DNA of 64,000 nt from Armatimonadota bacterium (GCA_036504235.1 DASXVN010000076.1:4395-68394); one strand, 5' to 3'. Counted from the stretch's first letter, positions 33,527 through 51,448 are shown. Numbers and translations are program-made. Notes: generated from the sequence alone by a model not told the origin.

Positions 33527-33719
33527 ACGCGGGAGCAGTCAGCGGATTCCTTTCGAGATCGGCCTCATCTTCTTCGGCTGCGCGGCCGGGCTGGTCGTCG
33601 CCTGGGTCACCGGCGGCCTTACCGGGCAGAACGGCACCTTCAAGCCTATCGCCCTGGGCCTCGGCGTCGCCGCTCTGATCTCTTCCTGCGCCTCCCTGGA
33701 GATCGCCTGTCTCTGCCTG

Positions 33720-35039
33720 ATGGCGCTTTGCTTTTTTGATGGTTTCATCAAGGCCGCCGACCCCTCGCGTGTTTCCCTGTTCGCCAAGGACGTCTTCCTG
33801 GCTATCGCCCTCCTGCGCTGGGGCTACCAGAACCTGCGGCGCCGCCGTTGGCCCTCCTTCGCTCTGCCTTTCACCGTCCCGATGGTGCTGTTCGTCGCCT
33901 ATTGTGGCGCGGAAATGTTCAACACTACTACCGCGGACCCGCGCGTTGCCCTGGCCGGCGTGCGCACCTGGATAATCTGGCTCCCCTGCGCCTTTCTCTT
34001 CTACGACTACGTGGTGAGTCGCGCGCAGCTCCAGCGCTTGCTCGTGCTCGTCGTGGGGCTGGGGCTGCTCACCGGAATCTATGGCATCGTGCAGTTCCGC
34101 GTGGGCTATGGCCATCTGCAGGGGCTGGGAGCCGGATTCGCCTACTACACGACCCACTTCAACGTACTGGGCACCGATACCGTCCGCGCCGTCTCCACCT
34201 TCGTCTCTCCGGGTACCTTCGGCGCCGCCATGGGTTCCGTGGTGATGCTCGGCACGGGCGCCGCCGCCTACCTGCAGCGTGTGCCCCTCAAGATCTTCTC
34301 CGGCGTGACCGCGGCCATCGCCCTCGTGGGACTCGGCGCCAGCGCTAGCCGCGCCCCGCTGATCGGGCTGGTGGCCGGTGGGTTCGTCCTGCTAGTGGTG
34401 GCCCGCAAGCCGCGACTCCTGGCCCTCGTGATCGGCATCGGCTTCGTCTTTGTGGTGCTGGTCGGTAGCTTCGCCGGCGGCGCTTTTGCCCGTCGCTACA
34501 ACCGCGAGCTGATCAACAGCGACACCATCACCTCCCGTTTTGCCATCCCCCTGCAGCACGTCTGGGTCTCGATGCTAGACGAACCCCTCGGAGTGGGCGT
34601 AGCTACCGGCATGGGCATCGGACGTTCCGATGCCGACCGCACCGCGTACGCTCCGGCGGCGAGTTCTGAGCTCCAAGCCTCCGACGAGGCCAGCGGCATG
34701 GTCGAGAATGAATACGCCCGCGCCTTGCGCGAACTCGGTATCCCCGGCGCTTTGCTGTTCATCTGGCTTATCTTCAAGGCGCTCCAGACCTTCGTCCGCT
34801 CCTACCGGCGCGTACGGACCACCGATTACCGCATCCTGGTCGGAGCCTGCCTGGGCTTGGCCGTCAGCATCGTCCTCCAGTTGGCCGTCGGCAGCGTTCT
34901 CTACCTCGTACCCAGCGGCATTCTCTTCTGGGGGATGGCGGCGCTGTGCTGGAAGCTGCCCGAACTCGAGGCGCGCGAACTGCTCACCGTGACTCCGGCG
35001 GAGCCCCAACCCGCCGCCGCCCCGGCGATAGGGAGATAG
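33720..35039 (+). CDS. O-antigen ligase/polymerase-like (Wzy_C family) membrane protein
   Basis: 10-12 TM helices with a periplasmic loop carrying ...GASASRAPLIGLVAG.... In-frame upstream translation (33540-33719) is TM-like and contains no ATG/GTG/TTG, so the true start may lie upstream. Confidence 0.6.
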   Translation: MALCFFDGFIKAADPSRVSLFAKDVFLAIALLRWGYQNLRRRRWPSFALPFTVPMVLFVAYCGAEMFNTTTADPRVALAGVRTWIIWLPCAFLFYDYVVSRAQLQRLLVLVVGLGLLTGIYGIVQFRVGYGHLQGLGAGFAYYTTHFNVLGTDTVRAVSTFVSPGTFGAAMGSVVMLGTGAAAYLQRVPLKIFSGVTAAIALVGLGASASRAPLIGLVAGGFVLLVVARKPRLLALVIGIGFVFVVLVGSFAGGAFARRYNRELINSDTITSRFAIPLQHVWVSMLDEPLGVGVATGMGIGRSDADRTAYAPAASSELQASDEASGMVENEYARALRELGIPGALLFIWLIFKALQTFVRSYRRVRTTDYRILVGACLGLAVSIVLQLAVGSVLYLVPSGILFWGMAALCWKLPELEARELLTVTPAEPQPAAAPAIGR

Positions 35040-35043
35040 CGGC

Positions 35044-37371
35044 ATGCGCCTCGCCTTCCTCGTGGAGGATGTCAGCCTCAAGAAGGGCCAGGAGCGCGTC
35101 ACCGCCGAGTTGCTTCGGCGGCTAGTCGCGCGCCATGAGGTCCACCTGTTCGGCTACACCGCCGCCGACCTCCCGCCCGAGATCCACGTTCACCGCCTGT
35201 GGAACCCCCGCTGCGGCTCCACGCTGCGCGCCTTTCTCTTCCCCTACGTGGCCGGGTGGGCCCTGCGGGGCCAGCGCTTCGACGTGGTCCTGTCCACCGG
35301 CGGCAACAGCTTCGTCTCGAATTTCGTCCTCACCCACACCTGCCATGCAGACCGTCGCCGCTTCCTCGGCGCCTCCCGCCCCGGCGAGCCGCCGCCGTCC
35401 GCCCTCTGGCGGCTGCTCTGGAACCTGCGCAGCCGCTGGGCCTGCGCTATGGAGCGCCGCGCCGTGCGCCGCTGCCCGGACCGCACTATCGCCGTCTCCG
35501 GAGCGCTCGCCCGCGCCCTGGCCCGCGCCTACGATCTGCCCCTCAGCCACCTGCTGGTCGCCCCCAACGGGGTGGACCATGACCTCTTCCATCCCGGCCT
35601 GCGCGGCGCCCACCGGGCCGAGTTGCGGGCGGAGTTGGGCCTCGACGAGCCGGACTTTGTCGTGCTCTTCGTCGGTGGCCTCTGGCTGGAGAAGGGCTTG
35701 CCGCTGGTCGTCGCGGCCCTGGCCCAGATGCAGCACCCGGCCCGCCTGGTCGTGGTAGGCTCCGGAGACGAGGAGGCGCTGCGCCGAATCGCGGCCGCGG
35801 AGGGCGTCGCTGACCGCGTGCTCCTGGTCGGCCGCCGGGACGATGTGCACCGCTTCTACGGGGCCGCCGATTGCTTTGCCTTCCCCTCCGAGTCGGAGGG
35901 CTTCGGCCTGGTCATGGCGGAAGCCGCCGCGGCCGGCCTGCCGGTGATCGCCACCCGCGTGGGCATCGCCGAAGACCTGATTGAAGACGGCCGCAGCGGC
36001 TACCTCGTGGAGGGCGACGTGGCCCAGATCGCCGACCGCCTGGACCGCCTGGCCGCCGATCCGCCACTACGCCGGGCCCTGGGCGAGGCCGCCGGCGCCC
36101 GCGCCCAGACCTTCACCTGGGAGCGCCAGGCCGAGTTGGTGGAGGAGTTCTTCGCGGAGAAGTGCGCTGCTGTGCCGCCGACACCCGAGAAGCTGCGCGT
36201 AGCCGTCCTCAGCCACGCCTGCGTGGTGGACGTCAACCAGCGGCTCTACGCCGATCTGGCCGCCGCGCACCCGGAGTGGGAAGTGCTGGTGATCGCCCCC
36301 GACCACTGGCGCAACCCGCTCAGCGGCGAGCGTCCCCTCTCGCTCCTGCCCGCGGCCGCCGCGCTGGTCCATCCGCTGCCCGTGCACCTCGCCGGGAAGA
36401 TGCACCTGCACTGGTATCACCGGGGGCCGCTCACCCGGCTGCTGCGCAACTTCCGCCCGGACGTGGTGATGGCCCATGAGGAGCCGTACTCGCTGGCCGG
36501 GGCGCAGGCCGGCTGGCTCGCGCACCGGCTGGGCGCGCGCATGATCCTCTGCAGCCAGCAGAACCTCTATCGCCCCTGCCCGCCACCGTTGGCCTGGAGC
36601 CAGGCCTGGCTGCTGCGCCACGTGGACTGGATGCTCCCGGTCACCCCGGAGGTCGGCGAGATCGTCCGCCAACGCGGCTTTTCCGGTCCCCAGAGCCTTC
36701 TGGCCAACGGCTTTGACGAGACGCTCTTCCGCCCCGAGGCCCGGGGTGACGGCTCCCTGCGTCGCGAACTGGGCCTGACCCGGCCCGTCCTCGGCTACGC
36801 GGGACGTCTGGAGCCCGCCAAGGGGCTCCGCAACCTCCTGGAGTCGGCGCGCCTGCTGCGCCTGCGCTACGGCGACGACTTCCAGCTTTTCTTCATCGGC
36901 GAGGGCAGCCTGCTCCCCGAGATCCAGGCCTTCGCCGCCCAGCACCTGGCCCCCGGGCAACTGGTGCACCAGGGCTATGTGCCGCATCATCGGATGGGCG
37001 AATACATGGCGGCGATGGATGTGCTGGTGCTCCCCTCGCTCACCACGCCCACCTGGAAAGAGCAGTTTGGCCGGGTCATCGTGGAGGCGCTGGCCTGCGA
37101 GGTGCCGGTGGTGGGGTCGGACTCGGGGCACATTCCGGTGCTGCTCGAGGAGACGGGCGGAGGACTGGTCTTTCCGGAGGGCCAGGTCGAGCCGTTGGCG
37201 GCTTGCCTGGAGCAGTTGCTACGCGACTCGGAGTTGCGGCGCCAACTGGGGAAACACGGTCACGACGTGGTCATGCGGGAGTACACCTGGCAGCGCTGGG
37301 CCGAGCACCTCTACGACGCCCTGTGCGGGACGATGGCTCTCCCCAACCGACCCGGGCGCCCGCCGCGCTAG
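35044..37371 (+). CDS. Tandem fusion of two GT4-family (GT-B) glycosyltransferase modules
   Basis: Two complete GT4 units (residues ~1-385 and ~386-775), each with the EX7E-type C-terminal motif (FPSESEGFGLVMAEAAAAGLPVIAT and LPSLTTPTWKEQFGRVIVEALACEVPVVGS). Confidence 0.75.
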   Translation: MRLAFLVEDVSLKKGQERVTAELLRRLVARHEVHLFGYTAADLPPEIHVHRLWNPRCGSTLRAFLFPYVAGWALRGQRFDVVLSTGGNSFVSNFVLTHTCHADRRRFLGASRPGEPPPSALWRLLWNLRSRWACAMERRAVRRCPDRTIAVSGALARALARAYDLPLSHLLVAPNGVDHDLFHPGLRGAHRAELRAELGLDEPDFVVLFVGGLWLEKGLPLVVAALAQMQHPARLVVVGSGDEEALRRIAAAEGVADRVLLVGRRDDVHRFYGAADCFAFPSESEGFGLVMAEAAAAGLPVIATRVGIAEDLIEDGRSGYLVEGDVAQIADRLDRLAADPPLRRALGEAAGARAQTFTWERQAELVEEFFAEKCAAVPPTPEKLRVAVLSHACVVDVNQRLYADLAAAHPEWEVLVIAPDHWRNPLSGERPLSLLPAAAALVHPLPVHLAGKMHLHWYHRGPLTRLLRNFRPDVVMAHEEPYSLAGAQAGWLAHRLGARMILCSQQNLYRPCPPPLAWSQAWLLRHVDWMLPVTPEVGEIVRQRGFSGPQSLLANGFDETLFRPEARGDGSLRRELGLTRPVLGYAGRLEPAKGLRNLLESARLLRLRYGDDFQLFFIGEGSLLPEIQAFAAQHLAPGQLVHQGYVPHHRMGEYMAAMDVLVLPSLTTPTWKEQFGRVIVEALACEVPVVGSDSGHIPVLLEETGGGLVFPEGQVEPLAACLEQLLRDSELRRQLGKHGHDVVMREYTWQRWAEHLYDALCGTMALPNRPGRPPR

Positions 37372-37791: not shown

Positions 37792-38574
37792 CTACTCGGG
37801 CCAGTCTCCGCCTTGCGCCGCGGTACCCCAGCGCTCACAGGCACCGACGCCATTGCTGCCCGCCGGGTTCAGCGCAAACGGCCCCTGGCCGTCATGGTAC
37901 CACTTGGCGTTGCCATCCACGAACAGGAAGTTCTTCCCGCCCACGTGGAACATGATCTCTGAGTACCCCGGCTGCCCCTTCGTGCTGTGGCTCTGGTACA
38001 CGTTCTCCCCCAGCGCGTCGCCCCACGAGCCGGGCAGATTCGCGCCCTTTTCGAAGAGCAGCACCGTCGCGGCCGGATCGGGGATCATGGCCTTGTTGCC
38101 CCCGGTGAAGATAGTCGTGACGCCGACCCGCCGCGAGCGCTGCGTGTACCGAGCGATCGCGTAGGCGCGCAACGTGTCCGCCTTGGCTCCGGGGGTCCCG
38201 ATGACGGCCTCCGGCATCGGATTAGTGGGGCAGGTCATGATTCCGCTGACCTTCTTCTCCACGTAGTCGCCAATAGTTATGTCCCAGGTGATGATCCCGG
38301 CCGCCGGCTGGTCCTTCGGGGTCGGGGGCGCCATGGGGTTGGGATGGCTGACGCACCACGTGGGGAAGTACTGATAGCTGTCGTTGCAGTACAGCGAGAA
38401 GGCCATCCCCAAGTTTTTCAGGTGCGAGATGCACTCGACGCGACGCGCGTTATTCCGCGCGTTCGCGATCACCGGGAACAGAATCGCCGACAAGACGGCG
38501 ATGATCGCAATCACCACCAGCATTTCCACCAGCGTAAAACCCGTCCGCAGACGGCGGGCTTGGTTCATCTCCAC
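37792..38574 (-). CDS. Prepilin-type N-terminal cleavage/methylation domain protein with DUF1559-like C-terminus
   Basis: Leader + GFTLVEMLVVIAIIAVLSAILFPV (type IV pilin N-methylation site). C-terminal ...GGKNFLFVDGNAKW... is typical of DUF1559 proteins, which are abundant in Planctomycetota and Armatimonadota. Confidence 0.75.
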   Translation of the reverse strand: MEMNQARRLRTGFTLVEMLVVIAIIAVLSAILFPVIANARNNARRVECISHLKNLGMAFSLYCNDSYQYFPTWCVSHPNPMAPPTPKDQPAAGIITWDITIGDYVEKKVSGIMTCPTNPMPEAVIGTPGAKADTLRAYAIARYTQRSRRVGVTTIFTGGNKAMIPDPAATVLLFEKGANLPGSWGDALGENVYQSHSTKGQPGYSEIMFHVGGKNFLFVDGNAKWYHDGQGPFALNPAGSNGVGACERWGTAAQGGDWPE

Positions 38575-38693: not shown

Positions 38694-40679
38694 TCAGTAG
38701 GGCATTTGCGAGACGGATTTGCCGATCAGCACCAGCGCCACGGTAACCATACCGACCAACCCCATCCCGCAAGCATAGCCGGCCCACAGTACCGTCGCAT
38801 ACTGCTTCCACCGCCGCGCTCCCAGCCGCGGGATGAAGTAGTACTGGCTGATAAGCGCCCCCAGGAGCTGCGGGAAGACGAAGTGAGGCAGGATCCCGAA
38901 GCTCCGGATCAGACCGTAAATCAGCAGGATCGGCAGCCGGAAAGCGCGCAGCACACTGTACAGCGCCAGGGCTCCGGCCATGCCGCCCATGAAGTACTCC
39001 CATTTCCAGGCCTGAACGAAGGGGCTCTGTTCCGGGTTCAGGGTGGCCGTATACCAGATGCCGTTCTGCAGCGCCTGCAGGTGCCACATCTTCAGGGCGT
39101 ACGGATACGCCGTGGAGGGAATCGGCCCCAGCTTCCAGATGAACTGCCAGAAGATCAGACTGGCGAAAATGGTGATTGGCCAGATGGTAATCTCGGCCTT
39201 GACCAGACTGATGATCTTGTTCCCGGTCAGCTCCAGCACCCGGAACTGCTGCGCCACGTCACCGTGATTGAAGTCCGGAATGGGGGCGAACCAGATGTCA
39301 ATATTCTTGTAGCCGCTGAAGATAATCACAGCGTTCTTCAGCATCGGAATACCGATATATTGGCCGGTCAAACCGATCATGCGGGCGTTGACGTACGAGT
39401 TGATCGGGGTCACGATAAACCCGAAGCCCACGATCCACCAGATCGGGAAGTCCGGCACTAGCCAATGGCACAGGAAGACGTATCCCAGCGTGGTGCCCAC
39501 GTAGATGGCGACGGCGATCCACAGCGGGAAATCGCCGCGGCCCGCCGGTGGCGCCCAGGTGGCCGTGCTCTCCTCCCCCGCCCGCCGCGCGCGCACGTTC
39601 GCGAAGTACTGCGTCAGCACCTCGTAGGCCCCCAGGATGGCGACCGCCATCGTGGCGCCGATGCCTACGCTCAGGTAGAAGTCGAGCTGGTTGGCGAACT
39701 GCGTCGAGATCGCGTCCATACCCGGCGTCCACTTGTTGAGGATGCCGGCCCGCTGCAGTTGGGGGTTGATGATGATGGTCGCCAGCGCCGCAATCGCGCT
39801 ACCCACGACCGCCCAGAAGGGAATGACAAAGCCGCCGAGCACCGTACCCAGGTCGGTCATGAAGCCCATCGGCACCGCCGGCCAGATCGACTGGGTACTG
39901 CGGGTCAGGTCCACGAAGGGGATCGGGATAAGCTGCAGCGGCTGGGTCATGATCACGCTGGTGATGGTGGGGATGCCCACGTAGACCGCGCCGAACACCA
40001 ACCCGATCATGGCGCCGATACTGAAGATGCGCCAGCGCCACGTCTCGTCCTTCCCGCCCGCCTCGGCCAGGGCCGTAGCCCCTTGGGCGGTGATGGCCGC
40101 GAAGGGATAGGGCAGCTTCTCGTAGTCGGAAGTCTCGCGGAACAGCAGGTAGCCGAAGGCGAACCAGTTGAGGCGGTTAAGAATGGTCTGCCCGACGATC
40201 AGCAGTCCGGGCAAGAGCCAGTCGCGGTCAAAGAAGGTGCGGTTGACGATAGCCGCGGAGTTCTCCCGGGGCACCAGCCAGGTCGGGATCTTGTCGGCGA
40301 TTCCCAAGCCTTTGGCGGCCTGCGACCGGACGAAGTATTGCCACCAGATCGCCTGCGCAAAAGCGCCGCCGGAGAGGGCCATACCGCCGTACATGGCGGT
40401 GAGACCGGCCGCGATATAGTACAGGATGTAGATCTGCGCGCGATTGAGCCGCACGAAAGAGCGTCGCGCGATCTCTGAGAACAGGATGATGGTCACCCAC
40501 TGGGCGGCGTCTCCCAGCGAAATCCCGGCCACCAACCCGAGGTAGATCGCGCCGGGCATCATTACGAAGCCCACGAACAGCGCTCCGGCCAGGGACCGCC
40601 CGTCGAAACCGTCCGTATAGGTTTCGGGCCGCTCCATCAGGCTTCGGTACAGTTCAATTTCGGCGTCTTTGTATGCCAC
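38694..40679 (-). CDS. Polytopic transporter, probably OPT (oligopeptide transporter) family
   Basis: About 16 TM helices, Trp/aromatic-rich, about 660 aa. GTG start with AGGAGG RBS. Family assignment is tentative. Confidence 0.45.
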   Translation of the reverse strand: MAYKDAEIELYRSLMERPETYTDGFDGRSLAGALFVGFVMMPGAIYLGLVAGISLGDAAQWVTIILFSEIARRSFVRLNRAQIYILYYIAAGLTAMYGGMALSGGAFAQAIWWQYFVRSQAAKGLGIADKIPTWLVPRENSAAIVNRTFFDRDWLLPGLLIVGQTILNRLNWFAFGYLLFRETSDYEKLPYPFAAITAQGATALAEAGGKDETWRWRIFSIGAMIGLVFGAVYVGIPTITSVIMTQPLQLIPIPFVDLTRSTQSIWPAVPMGFMTDLGTVLGGFVIPFWAVVGSAIAALATIIINPQLQRAGILNKWTPGMDAISTQFANQLDFYLSVGIGATMAVAILGAYEVLTQYFANVRARRAGEESTATWAPPAGRGDFPLWIAVAIYVGTTLGYVFLCHWLVPDFPIWWIVGFGFIVTPINSYVNARMIGLTGQYIGIPMLKNAVIIFSGYKNIDIWFAPIPDFNHGDVAQQFRVLELTGNKIISLVKAEITIWPITIFASLIFWQFIWKLGPIPSTAYPYALKMWHLQALQNGIWYTATLNPEQSPFVQAWKWEYFMGGMAGALALYSVLRAFRLPILLIYGLIRSFGILPHFVFPQLLGALISQYYFIPRLGARRWKQYATVLWAGYACGMGLVGMVTVALVLIGKSVSQMPY

Positions 40680-40802: not shown

Positions 40803-43800
40803 CTAGGCCGTATCCTCGGACTGGGGCGGGCCGCTCTCGCCCTCCACCAGCCGCCCTTCCAGCAGGGCCACGGCGTTCTGTCCGTACTCGTCCTTCTGCG
40901 CGGCCGGGAAGGTGCGCCACAGCAGATACTGCTTGCGGATGATGTTCACGAAGTTGCGGGTGACCCGCATCCAGGACGCGTCGTCACCGCTGGCGCGAAT
41001 GATCCGCGCCTCGATGGTGAAGATTTCCGGGTCCTCGGTGGGCACGGTCTCCACGTACAGCCGCTCGGAAACGCCCAGGTCGTACGGCGCCAGCCAGACC
41101 ATCGAGCCCAGCCGGTAGCCGGGTCCGTTCGGGAAATCCTCCTGGCTCATGACGATCTCCGCCGTCGAGAATTGCCCCAGCGAGTAGTCCGTGTGCGCCA
41201 GGAGGAACTCGCGCAGGTACATGTTCACGCCCAGCGCCTGGTCGCCGGTAACCGTGAAGGGCAGGCTCATGTTCAGGTTGTCGCCGTCCGGCTCCGGCAG
41301 CGACCAGCGCCGCTCGATACCGGGCATCGCGATGTCCGAGGCCCGCCGCGCCGGGTAGACCACCGAGAGCAGCACGGTGGCCATAATGATCAAGGTCGTC
41401 GCTACCGCCGAGAGCGAGGAGTAGTTCAGGTTCAGGCTCGCGCTCAGGTGGAACATCGTCACGATCTTGGCCGCAGTCTGGCCGACCAGGTAGCCGGCGA
41501 TGGCCCCCAGCACGGCGTAGACGCTGGCCTCGGCGATGAATAGCGCCGCGACGTGGTTGGGCGCGAGACCCAGCGAGCTGTAGATGTAGATCTCCTTGAC
41601 GCGCTCGTAGACCGACCCCAGCATCGTGTTGAGTACGATGGCGGCCGCGATCAGAATGGGAATGATCAAGTCGCCCATCCCGGCCAGGCTGGTGGAGCTT
41701 ACCGCGCTGCACAGGTAAGTCTTGCCGCCCACGCCCGCGTACAGGTTCAGCTCAATGCGGGTGATCAACTTGTTCAGCACCTCGTCGGCGCTCTTGTCGT
41801 CCGGCGTCGCAATGGCTACCGAGCGCAGCGTCGCGTTATGGTCCATGGCGAACTGGTAGGGAACCAGCACGATGCTGTCCGGCCCCAGATGAATGTACTC
41901 CTGGGCGTCACCGCCCTTGCCGGCGCTGCCTCGCGACTCCTCGAGCTGCTGCTGCGCCATCTGCTGCTGCATGACCAAAAAGTCGACCGGCGTCATGACT
42001 TCGCTGTCCATGTCCTGGGCGCTCTTGAAGCGCGACGAGGAGAGCACTCCGATCACGCGCATCTGGTTGCCGAAGACGCTGACGGTCGCGGTCCCGATAT
42101 CCGACGGCGCCACAGACAGGGCCTTGGCGACGCCCTCCGGCAGGATGCAGACCCGTTCGTCATTGGGCTGGAACCAGCGGCTGCCCGGGATCAGATACTG
42201 TTGCGGCTTGGTGACCTCGGCCTCCGTCGGCGTCATCCCCAGCATCGCCGTGGCCATGTACTGCGCGGGCCCGCGGCTAATGCTGACGAAGGACTGCTTG
42301 CCGATCTCGGTCGAGAAGTACCAGGCGCGACCGGCCACCTTATACTCGTCGCTAAATTCGGTGACCATCTGCCGGTAGGCGACCTCACCCATCGGCAGCC
42401 AGGTCTTGTCCCGCATCAGCACGCCGTTATACGGCGCCAGCTTGGGGATCAGGATCTTGTTGGCCCGGACGCTGGACACCACGGAGGTGAAGGACATAAC
42501 CGTGAAGGTCAGCAAAATCAGCGTCAGGCAGGTCAGGATCGTCCGGGTCTTGCGCCGGCGCATGTTGGAAACGCCCAGGCTGAAGGCCGCGGCCGAGGCG
42601 CTCATGCGGCCTACGTCGGCCTCATGAACCCCGGTCTGTTCATACTTGACCGCCTTCATTTGCTCCTCGAATTTGCTGACGATAATGCTAGTCACCAGCA
42701 CGCCGAGGGCTAGAATGATGAAGGCCAGCAGAATTACAATGGAGGTACTAGTCAGCGCAAAAGCAGGATGCACGTAGTACAGCACCGCGAAGATGCCCAG
42801 GAAGATGCCGCCCGTGCCCAGCAGTTGCCACTTGAGGTCCGGGTGGCCGATCAGCAGCCGCTCCAGGAAGTAGCTGAACGGCAGGAGCAGCGCCATGTAG
42901 AAGATGATGCCCTTGATGACGTCGTTGGCCGTGGACCGCACGGCCGGGTAGGCCCGCGATTCCAGTGACCACGCCGCCCGCGAGGACGAGATGAACTGGT
43001 CATAGCGCCACTGCTTGAGGAACTCGGAGGCCTTCTCCAGTTCCGCTTTGGCCGCCCCGTGCGCCTCGTCTACCAGGTTGTTGGTGATCCCGTACTGCTT
43101 CAGCTTCTGGATGCGGCTCTCGTCGAGCGTCCACATGTCCCGCGCCACCAGGTACGGGCTCATGTACAGCGCCGGGGTCTCATCCGCCAGGTAGCCGTCC
43201 CCGTTGGGGTTGGCCGCGGTGCTGTTGAGCAGCAGGAAGCGCAGCCCCAGCAGGCTGGCGGCCATGGTCACGCGCAGCTTGGTGCCGGCGGTCGAAAAGA
43301 CCATCCCCACCGGCTCGTAGTTGCTCTGCAGCTTCTTCGGCGGCAGCGGCAGGCAGTAGCCGTAGGTGTACGGCTCGGCCTCCAGGCCCGCGTCATATAC
43401 ATAGATCTGCGAGAGCAGATCGTAGAACCGCTGGTCCACCATGTCGTACAGCGTAGTCGCCTTCGCCTCGAACATCACGACTGTGGCCGGCTTCACCGGC
43501 TGGTCCATTTCCATCTCGATCGGGTAGGCGATCGCGCCGTTGACGCCCTGGTCCGGGGCCATCACGATGCCGCCGTCCTGCGGGCTCAGCAGGAAGCCGT
43601 CCACTTTGGTCTTGCCCGCCACCGCGCGTACGTTGGCGACGCCGGCGAGGTCAAAGCGGCCCTTCTCGTCCGCCGAATCCAGCAACTCGGTCCGCACGCC
43701 CATGGCGCTCTTCTCAACCTTGCGGATGGCCGCGATGCCGCCCACGATCGGGTCGTCCGGGAAGGTGCTGACCGCCGGGTCAAACTGCACAAGCCGGCCC

Positions 43801-45764
43801 TTGGCCTCCACGAAGTTGTCCTCCAGCTCAATCTTGAACAGGTCCTGCGGCTGAGTGACGGAGACCATATCGCCGAGCAAGCAGCCCATGAACCGGGCCT
43901 GCTCCACGACGTTGTCGATGTTCATCGCAGCGGGCAGGTCCATCGGCGTATCCACCAGGGGCCGCCCGTCGTTGATGGTGGCCAGGCCCACGGCGGGCAC
44001 CCCGGCCAGCACGCAGATCTCGCTGCCCAGGGCCAGATGCCCGGACATGTACGCCTGCCAGTTCTTGCCCTGCAGGGCGTTGATGCCGTCGGCGAAGCGC
44101 TGCGCCGGATCGACCGACAGCGCCTGCCCGACCAGCGCGGCGTACTCCCGGGCCTTCTTGCCCAGGTCCGCGAACTTCCACTGCATGCCCTCGTTATAGT
44201 CGTAGAAATAGCCCTTGAAGAACATGCCGAAGGCCGGATTGTGGCTGGACAGGTCCACCGAGAACCACAGGTTGACGTCCTCGCTGGTGAAGTCCAGGGC
44301 GCCGGTCAGCGCGTAGACCTTGGCCTCGACGTCCTTGAGCGCCGCCTGCTTCGCGGCGTCGTCGCCCGCCGTCTGGCCCTGAGCGGCCTTGACGGTGGCC
44401 TCGGCTTGGTCGGCGGCCTGGCGAATCAGGGGCGCGCGCTTCTGGAACTCGTCCAGATACGCTTTGCGCTTGGCCACGTCCGCCGCGGGAAGCTGATACA
44501 CCGACAGCACGCCCGCGTTGGGGTCGTGCGCCAGGCCCGAGCCGGACTTACTCTCCAGCCGGTCGGCCTTGCTCCGTGCGTCATTGATGCGGCCTAGCAG
44601 GCCGCTGACGCCTCGGAGCTGATCGTCAATGGTGCGGGTCTCAGTGGCCCCCGGCGGGAGCGCGCCCCACAGCCGGTCGGCGATGTCTTCGAGGCCCTTG
44701 CGTGACTCGTTGGCGATATTGAAGCAATACTTGACATACCCGTCGGCCCGCGCGCCGCGCGTGCGCTGCATCAGGTAGCGCTTCTCGCCGGCCAGCGCCT
44801 CAAAATGCCCGGAGGTGGCCAGGAAGACGACGGTGCGCTTAGGCGGCTGCGCCTGGAAGGTCTTGACCAGTTGCAGCAGCGTCGCGATCGAGGTGGCCGA
44901 CTCCGCCCCCGGCGCGAGGCTAGGGACGATGGACATGGAGTCGTAGTAGGCCTGGATGACGATGCGCTGAGTCTTGAGGCGCGGATCGGTGCCGGGGATC
45001 ACGCCGGAGATGTTCTTGGCCGTGACCTTCTGCCACTTCATGTCGCAGTTGACGGTCACATTGACCTGCGGCTGGCTGCGCAGCGTGCCCAGCAGATAGT
45101 CGGCCACTGCCCGGGGCACCCAGTAGCGGGGAATGTCCGCCGGGATGGACAGGAACTTCTGCTCGGCCTCGCCGCGAATCGTCCCCTCCGGCTCAATGAA
45201 CAGCACGGCGCGGGCGCCCAGCATTGGCGCGTTGAGCCACTCCGACTGACAGTTGAAGTCCATCAGCACGATGCTGCCGGTCACGGGATGTCCGTTGAAG
45301 GCCGCCAGGCTGCCGTCGCCGCCATACAGCAGCGGACCGGTGAGGCCCTCGGGCGGCGTCTGCGGGGTGCGGACCAGATTGGGCCACAGCGGGTAGACGG
45401 TGAACTGCTTGCCGGCCACGCTCAGGGAGGCGGGCTGCTCATCGTTGCCCGGCCGGGGCGACAGGACCGGGAACTCGTCCACGGCCACGTCCTGCAGGCC
45501 GGCCGCGCGGAACTTGGCTTCCACGAGTTGGGCGGTCTTCTCGCAGCCCGGATAGCCGGTCACCCGGCTGCCGAAAGCGGCCAGTTCCTGGATGGTCTGG
45601 GTAATTTCCGGAGCAGAGATCTGCGCGGCGACCTTCGCGTAGTCCGTCTCGGAGGAGAGCGCCACCTCCATTTCCTCCTGGGCCATAGTGGTGAGGTCAG
45701 TCACCATCAGACCCAGCAGGACAACTACCGCGAATAGGGCCGGCTTCATCATGCGTGATTTCAT
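40803..45764 (-). CDS. Giant ABC-transporter permease: signal peptide + degenerate M28/transferrin-receptor-like (PA) ectodomain + coiled-coil region + two FtsX/MacB-type permease modules
   Basis: 1653 aa. N-terminus has a PA-like region (GSIVLMDFN...GARAVLFIEP) and an M28-like region with non-canonical residues (YYDS, GAESATS, SGHFEALAG). C-terminal half has two FtsX-like 4-TM modules, the second with a MacB-like periplasmic domain. Confidence 0.7.
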   Translation of the reverse strand: MKSRMMKPALFAVVVLLGLMVTDLTTMAQEEMEVALSSETDYAKVAAQISAPEITQTIQELAAFGSRVTGYPGCEKTAQLVEAKFRAAGLQDVAVDEFPVLSPRPGNDEQPASLSVAGKQFTVYPLWPNLVRTPQTPPEGLTGPLLYGGDGSLAAFNGHPVTGSIVLMDFNCQSEWLNAPMLGARAVLFIEPEGTIRGEAEQKFLSIPADIPRYWVPRAVADYLLGTLRSQPQVNVTVNCDMKWQKVTAKNISGVIPGTDPRLKTQRIVIQAYYDSMSIVPSLAPGAESATSIATLLQLVKTFQAQPPKRTVVFLATSGHFEALAGEKRYLMQRTRGARADGYVKYCFNIANESRKGLEDIADRLWGALPPGATETRTIDDQLRGVSGLLGRINDARSKADRLESKSGSGLAHDPNAGVLSVYQLPAADVAKRKAYLDEFQKRAPLIRQAADQAEATVKAAQGQTAGDDAAKQAALKDVEAKVYALTGALDFTSEDVNLWFSVDLSSHNPAFGMFFKGYFYDYNEGMQWKFADLGKKAREYAALVGQALSVDPAQRFADGINALQGKNWQAYMSGHLALGSEICVLAGVPAVGLATINDGRPLVDTPMDLPAAMNIDNVVEQARFMGCLLGDMVSVTQPQDLFKIELEDNFVEAKGRLVQFDPAVSTFPDDPIVGGIAAIRKVEKSAMGVRTELLDSADEKGRFDLAGVANVRAVAGKTKVDGFLLSPQDGGIVMAPDQGVNGAIAYPIEMEMDQPVKPATVVMFEAKATTLYDMVDQRFYDLLSQIYVYDAGLEAEPYTYGYCLPLPPKKLQSNYEPVGMVFSTAGTKLRVTMAASLLGLRFLLLNSTAANPNGDGYLADETPALYMSPYLVARDMWTLDESRIQKLKQYGITNNLVDEAHGAAKAELEKASEFLKQWRYDQFISSSRAAWSLESRAYPAVRSTANDVIKGIIFYMALLLPFSYFLERLLIGHPDLKWQLLGTGGIFLGIFAVLYYVHPAFALTSTSIVILLAFIILALGVLVTSIIVSKFEEQMKAVKYEQTGVHEADVGRMSASAAAFSLGVSNMRRRKTRTILTCLTLILLTFTVMSFTSVVSSVRANKILIPKLAPYNGVLMRDKTWLPMGEVAYRQMVTEFSDEYKVAGRAWYFSTEIGKQSFVSISRGPAQYMATAMLGMTPTEAEVTKPQQYLIPGSRWFQPNDERVCILPEGVAKALSVAPSDIGTATVSVFGNQMRVIGVLSSSRFKSAQDMDSEVMTPVDFLVMQQQMAQQQLEESRGSAGKGGDAQEYIHLGPDSIVLVPYQFAMDHNATLRSVAIATPDDKSADEVLNKLITRIELNLYAGVGGKTYLCSAVSSTSLAGMGDLIIPILIAAAIVLNTMLGSVYERVKEIYIYSSLGLAPNHVAALFIAEASVYAVLGAIAGYLVGQTAAKIVTMFHLSASLNLNYSSLSAVATTLIIMATVLLSVVYPARRASDIAMPGIERRWSLPEPDGDNLNMSLPFTVTGDQALGVNMYLREFLLAHTDYSLGQFSTAEIVMSQEDFPNGPGYRLGSMVWLAPYDLGVSERLYVETVPTEDPEIFTIEARIIRASGDDASWMRVTRNFVNIIRKQYLLWRTFPAAQKDEYGQNAVALLEGRLVEGESGPPQSEDTA

Positions 45765-45896
45765 CAGACCGAAGTCACCGCCTCGATAACTCTTTCAACT
45801 GGGTGGCGCCGCCTCGCCCCAACGCTGCGTCCGGGGAGACGGAGTTGCCGTGCCGTCGCGACCTCCGGCCGCGACCGCTCGCCGGCGCGGGACCGC

Positions 45897-46793
45897 CTAA
45901 TGCTCCTGGCCGCCCATGATACCAACGGCAAGTTCGATATCCTCGCGCCGTTCGATTCGCTCGATGGCCCCGTCGCGGATGTGCACGACGCGGTCGGAAA
46001 CGTCAATCATCTTCAGATCGTGGGTAGCGGAGATAATCGTAACGCCGCTCTCAACGTTCAGCTCCTTGAGCAGGTCAATGATCTCCTTACCGGTCAGCAG
46101 GTCCAGGTTGCCGGTCGGCTCGTCGGCGAGGATGATCGCCGGGCTGTTGGCCAGCGACCGCGCCACGGCCACGCGCTGCTGCTGTCCGCCCGATAGCTCA
46201 TTGGGCTTGTGGTGCAGGCGGCCGCCGAGGCCTACCAGTTCCAGCAGCATCCGCCCGCGCTCCAGCATCTCATCGCTGCTCGCGCCGGCGAAGATCATCG
46301 GCAGGGTGACGTTCTCCAGCGCCGTCATTACCGGGATCAGATTGAAGGTCTGGAAAATGTAGCCGATGGTGCGGCAGCGCTGCCAGGCCAACTCCTGCGC
46401 GCTAAGCTGCGCCATGTCCGTCTCGTTGATGTAGCACGAGCCGGAGGTCGGCTTGTCCAGGCCGCCCACCAGGTTGAACAGGGTGGACTTGCCGGAGCCG
46501 GAGGGGCCCATGATGGACAGATACTCCCCACGGCGGATGTCCAGGTCCACGCCTTTGAGCGCCGGGACCTCCACATCCCCCATCTTGTAGATTCGCGTCA
46601 GGCCGCGGGTCCGCACGATATACTCGTGAGTGGTCACCGAGTCATCGCGCACCAGGTCAGCGGCGCGCTTGCGCAGGTTGCGCGAGGCCGCCTCCAGCAC
46701 CCCGGTCATATCCGCGTGACACTCCGGGCAGACCGTGACCAGCCCCGTCGTCTCGACTTCGTGACCACATTCCGCACACACGTATTTGGCCAT
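45897..46793 (-). CDS. MacB/LolD-type ABC transporter ATP-binding protein with N-terminal zinc-ribbon
   Basis: CAECGHEVETTGLVTVCPEC zinc ribbon; Walker A GPSGSGKST; LSGGQQQRVAVARSL signature; Walker B ILADEPTGNLD. ATG at 46793 with AAGGAG RBS. Confidence 0.85.
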   Translation of the reverse strand: MAKYVCAECGHEVETTGLVTVCPECHADMTGVLEAASRNLRKRAADLVRDDSVTTHEYIVRTRGLTRIYKMGDVEVPALKGVDLDIRRGEYLSIMGPSGSGKSTLFNLVGGLDKPTSGSCYINETDMAQLSAQELAWQRCRTIGYIFQTFNLIPVMTALENVTLPMIFAGASSDEMLERGRMLLELVGLGGRLHHKPNELSGGQQQRVAVARSLANSPAIILADEPTGNLDLLTGKEIIDLLKELNVESGVTIISATHDLKMIDVSDRVVHIRDGAIERIERREDIELAVGIMGGQEH

Positions 46794-46852
46794 TGCCTTC
46801 GCTCCTTGTTGGTCCCGCCCTGCCCGCACGAGCCGGGCAACTCCGGCCGACC

Positions 46853-47611
46853 CTAGATCTCCGACCGCAGAGCGGCCGCCGGCGGCATCTGCGCCGCCCG
46901 TATCGCGGGCGGAATCGCCGCCATCAGACTCAGGACGGCGCCGATCACCACGGACGCCACCATGTAGCCCGAAAGCTGCGCCCAGTTGACCTGGCCGACC
47001 ACGCCGAAACCGTACTTTATCCCGTAAAACAGAATCACAAACAGCGAGCCGACAATCAGGCCCGCCACGGACCCCAGCACGCCGACCACGGCGGCCTCAA
47101 TCAAAAAGAGCCGCACAATGAATGAATCGAGGGCTCCTAAACACTTCATCGTCCCAATTTCCTGGAACCGCTCCGTGACCGACATCAGCATGGAGTTGGT
47201 GATCCCGATGCCGCAAACCAGCAGCGACATGATGACCAGCCAGAGCTGGCGCGCGGCCTTTTCCTTGGCCGTTGCGGCCAACTGCTCGGCGGTCTGCTTT
47301 TGGCTAGCCTCGGTAGTCGCGGAGCCGGCGGTGCCGCGCACCGTCTCGGCGGCTTGCGCCACCGACTGCTCCTGCTGGACGCGAGCCTTCTCGACTCCCT
47401 CGCTAAAGATGTGGTCCGACCACACGTAGCTCAGGAAGGCCACGCCGAGGATGATGCCGGTGGCGGTGATGCCGGCCCGCCCCAGTCGCAGCAACACGCT
47501 CTTGGTGCTGATGCGGAAAGCGTCGCTCCAGGGCAGCATGATCTGCCGCTGCACGACCAGCGATTTCTCGCCGCCGCCGCCGCCCAATTCCGCCAGTTTC
47601 TTCACGTCCAT
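46853..47611 (-). CDS. FtsX-like ABC transporter permease (single 4-TM module)
   Basis: One TM, a short periplasmic segment, then three C-terminal TM helices with FtsX-family topology. Sits upstream of the ATPase in the same operon. Confidence 0.7.
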   Translation of the reverse strand: MDVKKLAELGGGGGEKSLVVQRQIMLPWSDAFRISTKSVLLRLGRAGITATGIILGVAFLSYVWSDHIFSEGVEKARVQQEQSVAQAAETVRGTAGSATTEASQKQTAEQLAATAKEKAARQLWLVIMSLLVCGIGITNSMLMSVTERFQEIGTMKCLGALDSFIVRLFLIEAAVVGVLGSVAGLIVGSLFVILFYGIKYGFGVVGQVNWAQLSGYMVASVVIGAVLSLMAAIPPAIRAAQMPPAAALRSEI

Positions 47612-48138: not shown

Positions 48139-48678
48139 ATGTACAAACTAAGCCCCGCGCTCGTGCACGTCTATACCGGCTCCGGCAAGGGCAAAACCAG
48201 CGCCGCTCTGGGCGTGACCTGGCGCGCCCTAGGGGCCGGGCTGCGCGTATACTTCCTGCAGTTCCTCAAGGGCGGCACCCCGGCCGCCGAGGAGCTGCTG
48301 GCCGACTGCTTCCCCGGACACCTGACCTTCCACAACCTGAACCACCCCTGCACTCCGGACCTCTTCGCCGGCCGGCCCACTGCCCAAGACTGCCGACTGG
48401 CCCAGGAGGCCTGGACGGTAGCTCGCGGAGTGCTGGCGGACCCGCAGTACGATCTGGTCGTGCTGGACGAGATCAACAACACGTTGCACCTGGGGTTGGT
48501 GGAGTTGGCTGAGGTCCTCCAGGCCCTGCGCGAGCGCCCCCCGACGCAGGAGGTCATCTGTACGGGCCGCGGAGCGCCGGAGGGCTTGGTGGACTTCGCG
48601 GACTTGGTCACGGAGCTACGCGAGGTCAAGCACCCCTATCGCAACGGCGTCCCCGCCCGCCGCGGAGTGGATTTCTAG
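48139..48678 (+). CDS. cobO: Cob(I)yrinic acid a,c-diamide / corrinoid adenosyltransferase (CobA/CobO/BtuR type)
   Basis: P-loop VYTGSGKGKTSAALG; LQFLKGG; DLVVLDEIN; C-terminal KHPY...GVDF. Confidence 0.75.
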   Translation: MYKLSPALVHVYTGSGKGKTSAALGVTWRALGAGLRVYFLQFLKGGTPAAEELLADCFPGHLTFHNLNHPCTPDLFAGRPTAQDCRLAQEAWTVARGVLADPQYDLVVLDEINNTLHLGLVELAEVLQALRERPPTQEVICTGRGAPEGLVDFADLVTELREVKHPYRNGVPARRGVDF

Positions 48679-49155: not shown

Positions 49156-50994
49156 TTAGAAGCCTACGGAGACGCCCATCATCACGAGCTGAGCATCCTC
49201 GAGTACGCTACCAGCAAGGTCCTTCGTGCGGTCCTCAACCAGCTGCTGGGCATAGGTGAAGTTAACATCTACGCCGTTGGCAACGGGCTTCTTCACGCGG
49301 ATGGCCCACAACTTGTCGAACGGAGCGCGAGTCTCGTTACCAGCGGCGAAGACCCGATCCCCTACGTTGTTGACGCCCCACATGGTGTTAGCCCAGTTGT
49401 CGCTCCGGCCATGCAACGAATAGTACATTGCATTCCAGTCGGCAGCGACGAACTTGAAGTTGAGCTGTCCGCCGATGACCTGCGTGTTCGGCATGACGAG
49501 CGGGTTGCGGAGCCAGCGCTCCCACGGAACCCACGTCGTGCCGTCTTCGTTCCCGTAGTTCTCGAAGTACGGGTTGACGGTGGAGTAGAAGGGGTTGTAC
49601 TCGGCGTCAGCCTGCGAGTAGTAACCCTTGAGGGCCCAAGCGCGGCCCTTCCAGATATCGACCGTGGCCATCAGGGCCTCCGGGTCGTTGTGGGTGACAT
49701 ACTTGTCGCCCGCGAGGTCGCGAAGCTGCTGAGCGTATTCTGCCTGCAGCTCGCGGCCGCCCCAGAAACGTACCCAACCGTCGGCGCTCCAGCCGCGCTC
49801 CCCGCCCACACCGTTGAGCAGGTAGTTGCCCGCGACAGCCCAGTTCGGCTGCTTGTAGGACAAGCGGGTGCTGGCATAGTAGTCGCCCATGGTCTTCCAC
49901 GGGGTGCTGAACGTGTAGTCGGCGCCGCCCACGAAGGCATCCAGGCCGATTCCGGTCGAGAACATGTTGTTCCAACCGAAGCGGATCCCCTGCTGCGACT
50001 GCCGGGCGTTGTTGACGAGCAGGCCCATGCCATAGGACTGGAACTGGCGGCCCAGCACCATGTGGGTGCGGGGGAAGACATGCCAGGTGAAGTCCAGGTT
50101 GGCCTCATCAAGCCACAGCTGCTCGGCCTGATGGGTGATGGAGCTGCTGGTGCCGAGGTCGGTGAAGCCGTCCAGGGCCACGATGTTGCGCCCGGCGAAG
50201 CTGCCGCGGCGGGTGAACGTCGAGACGAACGGGGCTTCGGTGTCGCGGACCTTGAGCACTACGCGACCGGTCAGGTCGTCAGTGATCTTGCCCTCGATGC
50301 CGAGCTTGGCGGTCATGTTGTCGAACTCGTTCTGCCCGACCTTGAAGCCCTTGGCCGAGCTGAGCAGGCTCTGCTGGCCGCCCACCAGGCGGCTCCCGGT
50401 GAACTGCTGGGCCAGGCCTACGCGATAGTCTACCCAACCGGTGACGCGGGGGCCCTGGCGGGCCTCGAGGGCGGCAACGCGGTCGGTGAGGCTATACACG
50501 TCGTCGGTCAGGTAGTCGAGGTTGTCCTTGACGTCCTTCAGCTCATTCTTGAACTCGTCGCAGAGCTTCTGGCAGACAGCCTTGACTTCGTCGGGATTGA
50601 CGACACCAGCCGGACCCTGCGGGCCAGTGGCGCCCGCGGGACCCTGCGCGCCAGCCGGGCCGGCGGCGCCGGCGGGACCAGCAGTACCAGTGACGCCAGC
50701 GGCGCCAGCGGGGCCCTGCGCGCCAGCGGGGCCGCGCATGTTCGGGTTCTTCTGCAGGGCGTCCAGCATGCGGCTAATGGCCATAGCGAACTCGTAGCGA
50801 GTCATGGCCCGGTTGCCACGGAACGTACCATCGGGGTACCCGATGATAATGCCCTGGTCGACGAGCTTCTGTACGGCATCATAGGCCCAGTGATCAAACG
50901 GCACAGTTTCGGCCGGATTGTACTGAGCCAGCGCGGGCAGGGCGATAGCGCCCAGCGCCACGATCAGGCATACGACTAGGAATTTCTTGCTCAT
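49156..50994 (-). CDS. Outer-membrane protein: SLH domain + collagen-like G-P-A repeats + coiled coil + C-terminal beta-barrel (porin-like)
   Basis: Signal peptide [23 protein letters not shown]; SLH motif ([38 protein letters not shown]); [43 protein letters not shown]; C-terminus ends in F. ATG at 50994 with AAGGAGGG RBS. Confidence 0.7.
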
Positions 50995-51448
50995 TTGGGT
51001 TATTAACCCTCCTTTTGGATGGTCGTCGAGGAGACGCGAGGTTGGCTCACAACTCGGCTTGCCCAAGCGTCCCTCCGGAGCGAACAGACCAGCATTGGAG
51101 GGCTCAAGAGTGTCCATGTTTCCTCTCATGCCCTGGCTGCGAACGGTCTGCGCTACTCCGCCCTCGTCCATTGACCTCTGATACCCTGGCCTGGAGGTCC
51201 CTCCCTTCTTGGGCCTGGTGTTTGGATATCAGCATGGACAAGCGCTCGACATACGGGGCATAAGCCCCGCTTACGGCGGGTTAACGATACTATTTTAGCC
51301 GCCGCAAGTCAAGGTAGTTCGACACCTGAGCTTCCGAAAGGTTCGCCTTCTCCAGCCTTTTCTCCGGGAATTTCCCCGGCCCCTTGAGGACCGTGCTTCC
51401 TCCCTAGCGACCCCCGCACTAGCAGCAGTTTCCAAACTGTCGCTGCTG

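Follow-up and report, generated by a model that had tools for sequence, protein, structure and literature searches.

The 64,000-nucleotide (nt) stretch of DNA analysed here, hereafter called the window, comes from a metagenome-assembled genome (MAG) of an Armatimonadota bacterium (GCA_036504235.1, DASXVN010000076.1:4395-68394). Its minus strand carries, between 37.8 and 47.6 kb, five co-directional genes, identified by open reading frame (ORF) calling, with gaps of ~60-130 nt between them. The largest of these genes encodes a giant protein of 1653 amino acids (aa), in which an ectodomain of the PA-M28 type, with what appears to be a remodelled and almost invariant pocket, is joined to a single MacB-type permease half of an ATP-binding cassette (ABC) transporter. 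In this report, we describe the giant, the ABC partners encoded beside it, and the OPT-like permease gene that accompanies it, and we consider what such a combination may do in the cell envelope.

The operon

All positions are counted from the first letter of the window, and the features of the operon lie on its minus strand. The first gene (46853..47611) encodes a small FtsX-domain permease of 252 aa, recognized by PF02687 (65.5 bits) and by a transmembrane (TM) scan. It is followed by the gene for an ABC ATPase of 298 aa (45897..46793; PF00005, 112.5 bits) and by that for the giant (40803..45764; 1653 aa plus stop codon), which is registered at NCBI as HEY3398609.1, “FtsX-like permease family protein”. 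Next comes a polytopic membrane protein of 661 aa that resembles the OPT superfamily (38694..40679; HEY3398608.1, “peptide transporter”), and the probable final gene of the operon encodes a 260-aa protein with prepilin-type and DUF1559 domains (37792..38574; PF07963 7e-8, PF07596 9e-7). An earlier note, made from the sequence alone, had described a minus-strand operon of three genes; the three co-directional ORFs are present where it placed them, but the operon probably reaches further, the OPT-like and DUF1559 genes lying outside the span that it covered. The operon belongs to the Zipacnadia type of the Armatimonadota. In a promoter and terminator scan of the locus, the number of sites was no higher than in shuffled sequence.

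The giant is a real and widespread protein

A database search with the giant returned 758 relatives; of the best 120, nearly all have the full length, with 43-100% identity over 1500-1900 aa. The check for a frameshift or stop in the ORF was clean, and a single uninterrupted reading frame of 1653 aa, as first described, is thus upheld by relatives that are themselves full length and mostly of 1500-1900 aa. It might be supposed that an assembly or annotation artefact had joined two genes, one for a peptidase and one for a permease, and long spurious ORFs do arise at 65% G+C. However, no specific support for such an event was found, more than 100 independent clusters from several phyla share the full-length architecture with identity spread over the whole length, and the AlphaFold2 (AF2) model is confident across the domain junctions. 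A frameshift or fusion artefact is ruled out by this conserved architecture; the conservation of the fusion effectively refutes the idea, to which we give a vanishingly small probability.

When each species was represented by one genome in a scan, at least 592 genomes proved to contain a relative of the giant. Such relatives occur in the Armatimonadota (Zipacnadia, Chthonomonadales including Chthonomonas calidirosea, and Fimbriimonadales), in Fervidibacter, and in the Latescibacterota, and also in MAGs labelled WS1 or Gemmatimonadetes. A second, paralogous clade of giants coexists with the main type in the same genomes. The C-terminal 176 residues match 1357 representatives (50% identity clusters) and, among the matches listed, form the extreme C terminus in long proteins of about 1450-3050 aa. 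Some relatives reached through this C-terminal domain have 2000-3050 aa, and the family therefore has larger variants.

Domain architecture of the giant

AF2 models were built with a 114-sequence alignment whose rows were full-length database proteins. The N-terminal part (residues 1-1045) reached a predicted local distance difference test score (pLDDT) of 90.8 and a predicted template modelling score (pTM) of 0.85, and the C-terminal part (residues 1046-1653) reached a pLDDT of 79.2 and a pTM of 0.52. Three Pfam domains score over their gathering thresholds: Peptidase_M28 at residues 251-332 (PF04389; 28 bits, cut-off 21.3), which covers only the first 78 of the 193 model positions, MacB_PCD at 1075-1273 (PF12704; 30 bits, cut-off 27), and FtsX at 1368-1476 (PF02687; 54.3 bits).

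The protein begins with a positively charged and hydrophobic segment (residues 1-28; 45681..45764) that ends in TMA|QEE, where the family consensus is AxAQ; in the model its pLDDT is below 70, and that of the linker at 26-33 is below 50. The conserved AxA-Q supports the signal peptide proposed earlier as a probable Sec signal peptide, and its cleavage is inferred. It is followed by the N-terminal half of an M28 domain with an inserted PA domain (residues 36-335; 44760..45659), which was recognized by profile and by Foldseek and contains the motifs Y273-Y-D275, G-A-E288, and H320-F321. The PA domain itself occupies approximately residues 105-245 (45030..45452), the alignment to 2EK8 and YwaD spanning it. 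Within the M28 domain lies a coiled-coil-like insertion of four helices (residues 337-490; 44295..44756), predicted with high pLDDT at 342-366, 379-412, 427-462, and 469-489. The long coiled-coil-like segment that the earlier note described is therefore real as a helical region, but it is a property of the Zipacnadia-type clade only, being absent from relatives such as P0105-P0118 as well as from the Chthonomonadales and Fervidibacter types. The C-terminal half of the M28 domain (residues 495-640; 43845..44282) carries the invariant residues D504, W569, E582, D599, R601, D605-T606, and D609. It lies inside the Foldseek matches to M28 structures; searched alone against the PDB by sequence, it gave no significant match, and a weak ordered alignment places the family motif “lvDtPfD” on “WYHTPED” of YwaD.

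The assignment of a PA-like and M28-like ectodomain, which was also part of the first description, stands on several comparisons. Family profiles match 2EK8 (1e-20 to 2e-23), YwaD (8e-17 to 1e-19), AAP (2e-10 to 3e-10), transferrin receptor 1 (TfR1; 2e-10), and Nicalin (2e-9) in the PDB. A Foldseek search with the N-terminal model retrieved 2EK8 (1e-19), YwaD/BSAP, PaAP, GCPII, and TfR1. Among the relatives, 36 of 37 match PF04389 and 15 of 37 match PF02225, the giant of the window itself having no PF02225 match. As in TfR and GCPII, the PA domain is inserted in the M28 domain. The TfR_dimer domain (PF04253) gave no match at E<=1 in the giant, and the M28 domain is followed instead by a beta-rich region (residues 650-850; 43215..43817), whose strands are predicted with a pLDDT of ~90 and which has no significant PDB profile match and no Pfam match. 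In two relatives, P0119 and P0120, an added hydrophobic hairpin lies within this beta-rich part of the ectodomain.

The ectodomain is followed by a helical stalk (869-948), a 3-TM anchor, and a cytoplasmic helix that ends at residue 1044 (together 42633..43160), as seen in the AF2 model and the TM scan. The three segments of the anchor are 949-971, 981-1004, and 1009-1027, and the modelled helices run through 869-890, 896-917, 921-971, 977-998, and 1008-1044; a continuous stalk/TM/cytoplasmic helix thereby connects the PA-M28 ectodomain with the N-terminal end of the FtsX half. The latter is a complete MacB-type permease half (residues 1058-1477; 41334..42593), in which an N-terminal amphipathic helix, TM1, a periplasmic core domain, and TM2-4 follow each other in this order. 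Foldseek matches of the C-terminal model include MacB (5GKO, 5LIL, and 5NIK, each at about 1e-8, with 3e-8 for 5GKO), Spr0694-0695 (5XU1), and the periplasmic domain of Escherichia coli MacB (5C59, 2e-5), and the last of these, together with the PF12704 match, bears out the MacB-like periplasmic domain that had been proposed.

It should be mentioned that two FtsX modules had been claimed for the giant, and this claim is not borne out. PF02687 matches once, and residues 935-1045, which include the first TM cluster (949-1027), were compared with the FtsX domain and rejected as a second module (hhalign probability 0.16%). Because the signal peptide is probably cleaved and the first TM cluster has no FtsX homology, the giant is best described as having a 3-TM anchor and one FtsX module. 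A tandem-FtsX permease of the ADOP or YbbP type was likewise rejected, given the single PF02687 match and a score of 26 bits against the ADOP model TIGR03434 (cut-off 622).

The giant ends with a family-specific cytoplasmic domain (residues 1478-1653; 40806..41333) that has no Pfam match and no PDB sequence match. Foldseek gave weak matches of this domain to PYL, Bet v1, START, and Ups1 (E ~1e-3, probability 0.4-0.98, TM-score ~0.3), and in the model it possibly has a helix-grip (Bet v1/START-like) fold; if real, such a fold suggests that a hydrophobic ligand is bound on the cytoplasmic side.

A remodelled active site

The residues of the M28 active site were mapped from HMMER alignments to AAP, 2EK8, and YwaD, with AAP numbers counted along the alignment, and column frequencies were taken from 83 relatives with 33-78% overall identity. 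In AAP (1AMP), we take H97, E152, D179, and H256 to be zinc ligands, D117 to be the bridging ligand, D99 to orient H97, and E151 to be the general base. In the giant, H97 corresponds to Y273 (76 of 83 relatives), D99 to D275 (82 of 83), and D117 to E288 (76 of 83, with Asp in five more), while the general base E151 is replaced by H320 (82 of 83). E152 corresponds to F321, a position at which 52 relatives have Phe, 22 His, and six Cys. The counterpart of D179, assigned by motif order only, is D504 (83 of 83), and that of H256, taken from the weak ordered alignment, is D605 (82 of 83). In addition, D599, R601, T606, and D609 are each present in all 83 relatives. The substitutions that had been read from the sequence, YYDS for the H-x-D motif and H320-F321 for E151-E152, are thus correct.

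By this alignment, the canonical di-zinc site and the general base are absent from the giant: neither the full set of five co-catalytic zinc ligands nor the general-base Glu of active M28 peptidases is kept, and the canonical zinc-ligand set is retained by none of the 83 relatives. Since its M28 fold lacks these residues, the giant ought not to be classed among the M28 peptidases, although the names that such proteins bear in databases include “M28 family peptidase” and “Aminopeptidase YwaD”. The earlier description of the domain as catalytically degenerate holds in that the canonical ligands are gone, but in three lineages the residues at these positions, Y273, D275, E288, H320, D504, and D605, are almost invariant. 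The further step, that the domain is an inactive scaffold, is not established, given that D275, H320, D504, D599, R601, D605, T606, and D609 are each found in 82-83 of the 83 relatives. In other words, the site looks remodelled and not decayed: because the replacement residues are near-invariant at such modest overall identity, the pattern argues for a functional pocket, which may be ligand-binding or non-canonically catalytic.

The small permease and the ATPase

The small permease has the four TM segments that were first ascribed to it. Its outer loop is only ~55 aa long and of low complexity, without a periplasmic core domain, and against the NCBIfam models for LolC/E, MacB, and FtsX every score is far under the cut-off.

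The ATPase has the Walker A motif, the LSGGQ signature, the Walker B-Glu, and the H-loop, and by this set of motifs it is a competent ABC ATPase. Its start is likely the ATG at 46793, from which homologs align, the ORF itself extending to a GTG at 46829. The top NCBIfam match is LolD (230 bits; cut-off 307.75), followed by MacB, DevA, and FtsE; the scores against the LolD, MacB, and FtsE models are 199-230 bits, under the equivalog cut-offs, and that against the model of the darobactin exporter DarD is 204 bits, well under its cut-off of 375 bits. Residues 6-25 (46719..46778) form an N-terminal zinc ribbon of the type CxxC-x16-CxxC, with the sequence CAECGHEVETTGLVTVCPEC (CAEC...CPEC). The ribbon, which had been noticed before, is thus present in an ATPase with intact motifs, but it is restricted to one clade. 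It is kept in 19 of the 20 Zipacnadia-type loci with an upstream ATPase, where the exception, L014, may be an artefact of ORF extraction, and in none of 12 Chthonomonadales-type ATPases, which makes it, as judged from these sequences, a trait of the Zipacnadia-type clade and not of the family.

The ftsX and ATPase genes are always paired in the relatives, and the pair lies near the giant in 33 loci that represent two clades and two gene orders. In the Zipacnadia type it stands upstream of the giant, and in the Chthonomonadales type it stands downstream, in the order giant-OPT-...-ftsX-atp.

Genes linked to the giant

Neighbourhoods were counted in 79 non-redundant related loci. An OPT-like gene lies directly downstream of the giant in 55 of them, mostly with gaps of -49 to +100 nt, and in ten others a membrane protein with DUF6785 and DUF6784 lies upstream instead (nine within ~310 nt and one 3.1 kb off). 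A permease of one or the other type is therefore coupled to the giant in 65 of the 79 loci, and in nine of the other 14 the available sequence ends within ~1.2 kb of the gene. No other gene shows so tight a linkage to the giant as that of the OPT-like permease. The OPT-like and DUF6785/6784 proteins are distant homologs of each other (hhalign probability 86%, E 4.9e-6 over 538 columns). The paralogous giants pair specifically with the DUF6785 type, and the Latescibacterota carry both. The DUF6785+DUF6784 protein of ~651 aa that adjoins the paralogous giants upstream was seen in L032 (7965-9920), L022-L027, L042, L065, L077, and L078; DUF6785 was not found in the 64-kb window. The 661-aa neighbour in the window is a distant relative of both OPT (PF03169) and DUF6785/DUF6784, most members of this group being under Pfam detection: three of 26 homologs match PF03169, the best at 1.5e-9, and the protein of the window has no match at E<=1.

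Pilin-like DUF1559 genes accompany the giant in a non-random manner, with 25 of 29 hidden Markov model (HMM) matches located 1.8-3.9 kb downstream of its stop codon on the same strand. The DUF1559 protein of the window carries the prepilin N-terminal methylation motif G|FTLVE. In related Armatimonadota loci, one to three prepilin-type/DUF1559 genes come after the OPT-like gene.

In the Chthonomonadales-type and Latescibacterota clusters, a peptide chaperone of the PqqD family (PF05402, 1e-10 to 1e-14) is also present; it was found by HMM in 29 loci and confirmed by Pfam in three. The same clusters encode a conserved protein of ~300 aa, here called protein X, which lacks invariant Cys and His residues and for which no relative was found in Pfam, NCBIfam, or the PDB. 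Protein X and PqqD follow the OPT-like gene in L053 (16515-17886), L074 (18442-19880), and L032 (17128-18493). The recurring theme of M28, OPT, and PqqD favours a peptide-like substrate.

The operon has further neighbours in the window. A CobA/BtuR-like ORF (cob(I)alamin adenosyltransferase-type; 48139..48678, plus strand) is divergent from it and syntenic in L001, a locus that is 78% identical. Approximately 1.5 kb upstream of the operon and on the same strand, a protein of 671 aa that has collagen triple-helix repeats in addition to an SLH domain (49156..51171, minus strand) is possibly an S-layer or envelope protein. On the other side, a plus-strand block (29700..37371) encodes UvrA, then a GT2 protein, a Wzy_C/O-antigen-ligase-like protein, and a double GT4 glycosyltransferase; this block also flanks the operon in L001.

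Comparison with known systems

The operon has the hallmarks of a type VII ABC system such as MacB, LolCDE, FtsEX, or YbbAP: 4-TM FtsX-domain permeases, a large periplasmic core between TM1 and TM2 (in the giant only), and a separate, cognate LolD/MacB/FtsE-like ATPase with its catalytic motifs. The view of the locus as a MacB/FtsX-type transporter was supported by the domain matches, by the Foldseek matches to MacB at ~1e-8, and by the nature of the ATPase. Orthology to LolCDE, MacB, or FtsEX was rejected, every NCBIfam equivalog score being far under its cut-off. As in LolC/LolE, a heterodimer of two different FtsX proteins is plausible for the giant and the small permease, and mechanical work in the envelope would be expected of the complex, as of type VII systems in general. 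Unlike those systems, however, one permease partner here is nearly devoid of a periplasmic domain; the FtsX half of the giant is preceded by a PA-M28 ectodomain of ~950 aa on a 3-TM anchor and is followed by the 176-aa cytoplasmic domain; the locus is tightly coupled to an OPT-like permease; and no partner gene of the MacA/TolC, LolA, or EnvC type is found at the locus.

The ectodomain matches best the PA-M28 aminopeptidases of Aneurinibacillus (AM-1, 2EK8), Bacillus subtilis (YwaD/BSAP, 6HC6), and Pseudomonas aeruginosa (PaAP, 8ACR), with which it shares the fold and the insertion of the PA domain in M28. It differs from them in the replaced zinc ligands and catalytic Glu (Y273, F321, D605, and H320), in the helical insertion and beta-rich domain, and in the membrane stalk and fusion to an ABC permease. 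With the transferrin receptor, Nicalin, and Nicastrin, whose ectodomains are non-catalytic, it shares the condition of a PA+M28 ectodomain of a membrane protein without a canonical zinc site, but those proteins are eukaryotic and anchored by a single TM segment, whereas in the giant the former active-site residues are near-invariant. A functional parallel is offered by FtsEX with EnvC-AmiA/B, PcsB, RipC, or CwlO, in which an ATP-driven FtsX module acts with a peptidase-type effector carrying a coiled-coil; here, in contrast, an effector of another fold is fused in cis, the coiled-coil is found in one clade only, and peptidoglycan targeting is not indicated. To our knowledge, no characterised OPT protein works with an ABC or FtsX machine.

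A proposed mechanism and its alternatives

What the analysis shows is the domain architecture and its folds, a pattern of conserved residues, and the linkage of the genes. From them we propose, tentatively and at somewhat less than an even chance, that the operon encodes a heterodimeric type VII ABC mechanotransmitter that drives a built-in peptide-handling ectodomain and works with the OPT-like permease; subunit stoichiometry, mechanical coupling, the peptide substrate, and the direction of transport are what we infer in this scheme. Because the giant has one FtsX domain, and the ftsX and ATPase genes travel as a pair, we propose the small permease as the heterodimer partner of its FtsX half. 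The complex would probably contain the ATPase twice, together with the small permease and the one FtsX half that the giant supplies, in a LolC/LolE-like heterodimer. By analogy with MacB, LolCDE, and FtsEX, ATP binding and hydrolysis in the cytoplasm would move the stalk helices and thereby alter or reposition the ectodomain; type VII systems that drive periplasmic partners have been reviewed (PMC5985334, PMC7668044, PMC12646458). The pocket formed by Y273, D275, E288, H320, D504, and D605 would bind a peptide or a protein terminus and may process or trim it, and the OPT/DUF6785-superfamily permease would transport this peptide-like ligand through the membrane. As an anchored periplasmic partner, the pilin-like DUF1559 protein may take part. 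Of the earlier proposal of a mechanotransmission device with its own effector, the functional analogy is thus reasonable, but there is one FtsX module, and the inactive role of the effector is the part that is not established.

Several observations weigh against this proposal. In the Latescibacterota, in Fervidibacter, and in the paralogous clade, no ftsX or ATPase gene was found closer than 10 kb to the giant, and so the heterodimer is tentative; the giant could also homodimerise like TfR and GCPII. The placement of D504 and D605 on D179 and H256 of AAP depends on motif order and one weak alignment, and the conserved carboxylate, His, and Tyr residues could still bind metal and catalyse hydrolysis. 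The relationship to OPT is weak, the protein of the window missing PF03169 and having no PDB relative by sequence search, and a search of the 64-kb window found neither PqqD nor protein X.

If the conserved pocket does bind metal, the giant could be an active exopeptidase with a non-canonical site, trimming environmental peptides for nutrition, with the OPT-like protein as importer and the ABC module regulating or positioning the enzyme. The site could be mononuclear or hold another metal, with E288, D504, D605, H320, and Y273 as ligands. Polar, metal-competent residues are near-invariant at the former active site, the nearest structural relatives (2EK8, YwaD, and PaAP) are active PA-M28 aminopeptidases, and an OPT-like importer gene adjoins; moreover, proteomics of cultured Fervidibacter sacchari detected “M28” peptidase and “OPT” transporter proteins, without gene resolution (PMC11535203). 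On the other hand, neither the two His ligands nor the Glu152 ligand remain, the general-base Glu has become His, the canonical set is kept in 0 of 83 relatives, and an FtsX motor, a stalk, and a cytoplasmic domain are not obviously needed for nutrition, and we therefore regard this explanation as possible and on the unlikely side. A different use of the same parts, which we consider unlikely, is that the ATP-driven FtsX motor operates a nicastrin/TfR-like receptor; having caught a peptide or protein terminus, the receptor would gate a secondary-transporter-like channel or feed it.

The comparison with FtsEX raises the further idea of a cell-wall remodeller, in which ATP would control the binding or cleavage of peptidoglycan stem peptides by the fused domain, and the released peptides would be recycled through the OPT-like permease. 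FtsEX activates the coiled-coil peptidoglycan hydrolases or activators EnvC, PcsB, RipC, and CwlO (PMC7668044, PMC10694151, PMC6705773), the Zipacnadia-type ectodomain has a coiled-coil-like helical insert, an FtsW/RodA gene lies within the L004 and L005 clusters, and the phylum-wide conservation suggests a housekeeping role. Yet the insert is missing from most clades, the FtsW/RodA neighbour is confined to one lineage, no LysM, SPOR, or PG_binding domain was detected with Pfam, and against the FtsX and FtsE models of NCBIfam the scores fall far short of the cut-offs, which leaves this idea quite improbable. MacB-type exporters of peptides are known, and the conserved PqqD-family gene of the Chthonomonadales-type and Latescibacterota clusters belongs to the type known as RiPP (ribosomally synthesized and post-translationally modified peptide) recognition element (RRE). 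One could therefore imagine that PqqD reads a leader, the MacB-type ABC module exports the peptide, and the outer M28-like domain trims or captures it, and the score of the ATPase against the DarD model points the same way, though it is well under the cut-off. However, no gene for a precursor peptide was recognized in any cluster, nor one for a radical-SAM enzyme, a cyclase, or another modifying enzyme, so that the set of precursor, RRE, and modifying enzyme that marks a RiPP cluster was not found. Protein X has no residue of the invariant Cys or His kind, PqqD and X are both missing from the window, and the distribution is phylum-wide and core-like, unlike that of sporadic RiPP clusters; we give export or maturation of this sort only a slim chance.

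Significance of the giant family

The paradigms of type VII ABC systems are few, namely MacAB-TolC, LolCDE, FtsEX, and YbbAP-TesA, and in these the periplasmic effector is a separate protein. The giant fuses an effector-like domain of the TfR/nicastrin type in cis, with a pocket that appears rebuilt and yet strictly conserved, and is genetically tied to a permease of the OPT superfamily. In the literature searched, we found no description of this FtsX/PA-M28 giant family and no mention of DUF6785/DUF6784. What is new is the architecture and the obligate permease partner, the underlying modules being already known. The family spans more than 1300 clusters at 50% identity, in poorly studied phyla, and cultured hosts such as Chthonomonas calidirosea and Fervidibacter sacchari make it tractable. 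If the coupling proposed here is real, it would represent a new way in which ATP powers the handling of peptides on the outer side of the cytoplasmic membrane and would give a first functional handle on the bacterial OPT and DUF6785 proteins. If, instead, the motor gates a receptor-fed channel, the giant would belong to a new envelope machine, an ABC/OPT hybrid without a described counterpart that would be core equipment of the Armatimonadota and Latescibacterota.

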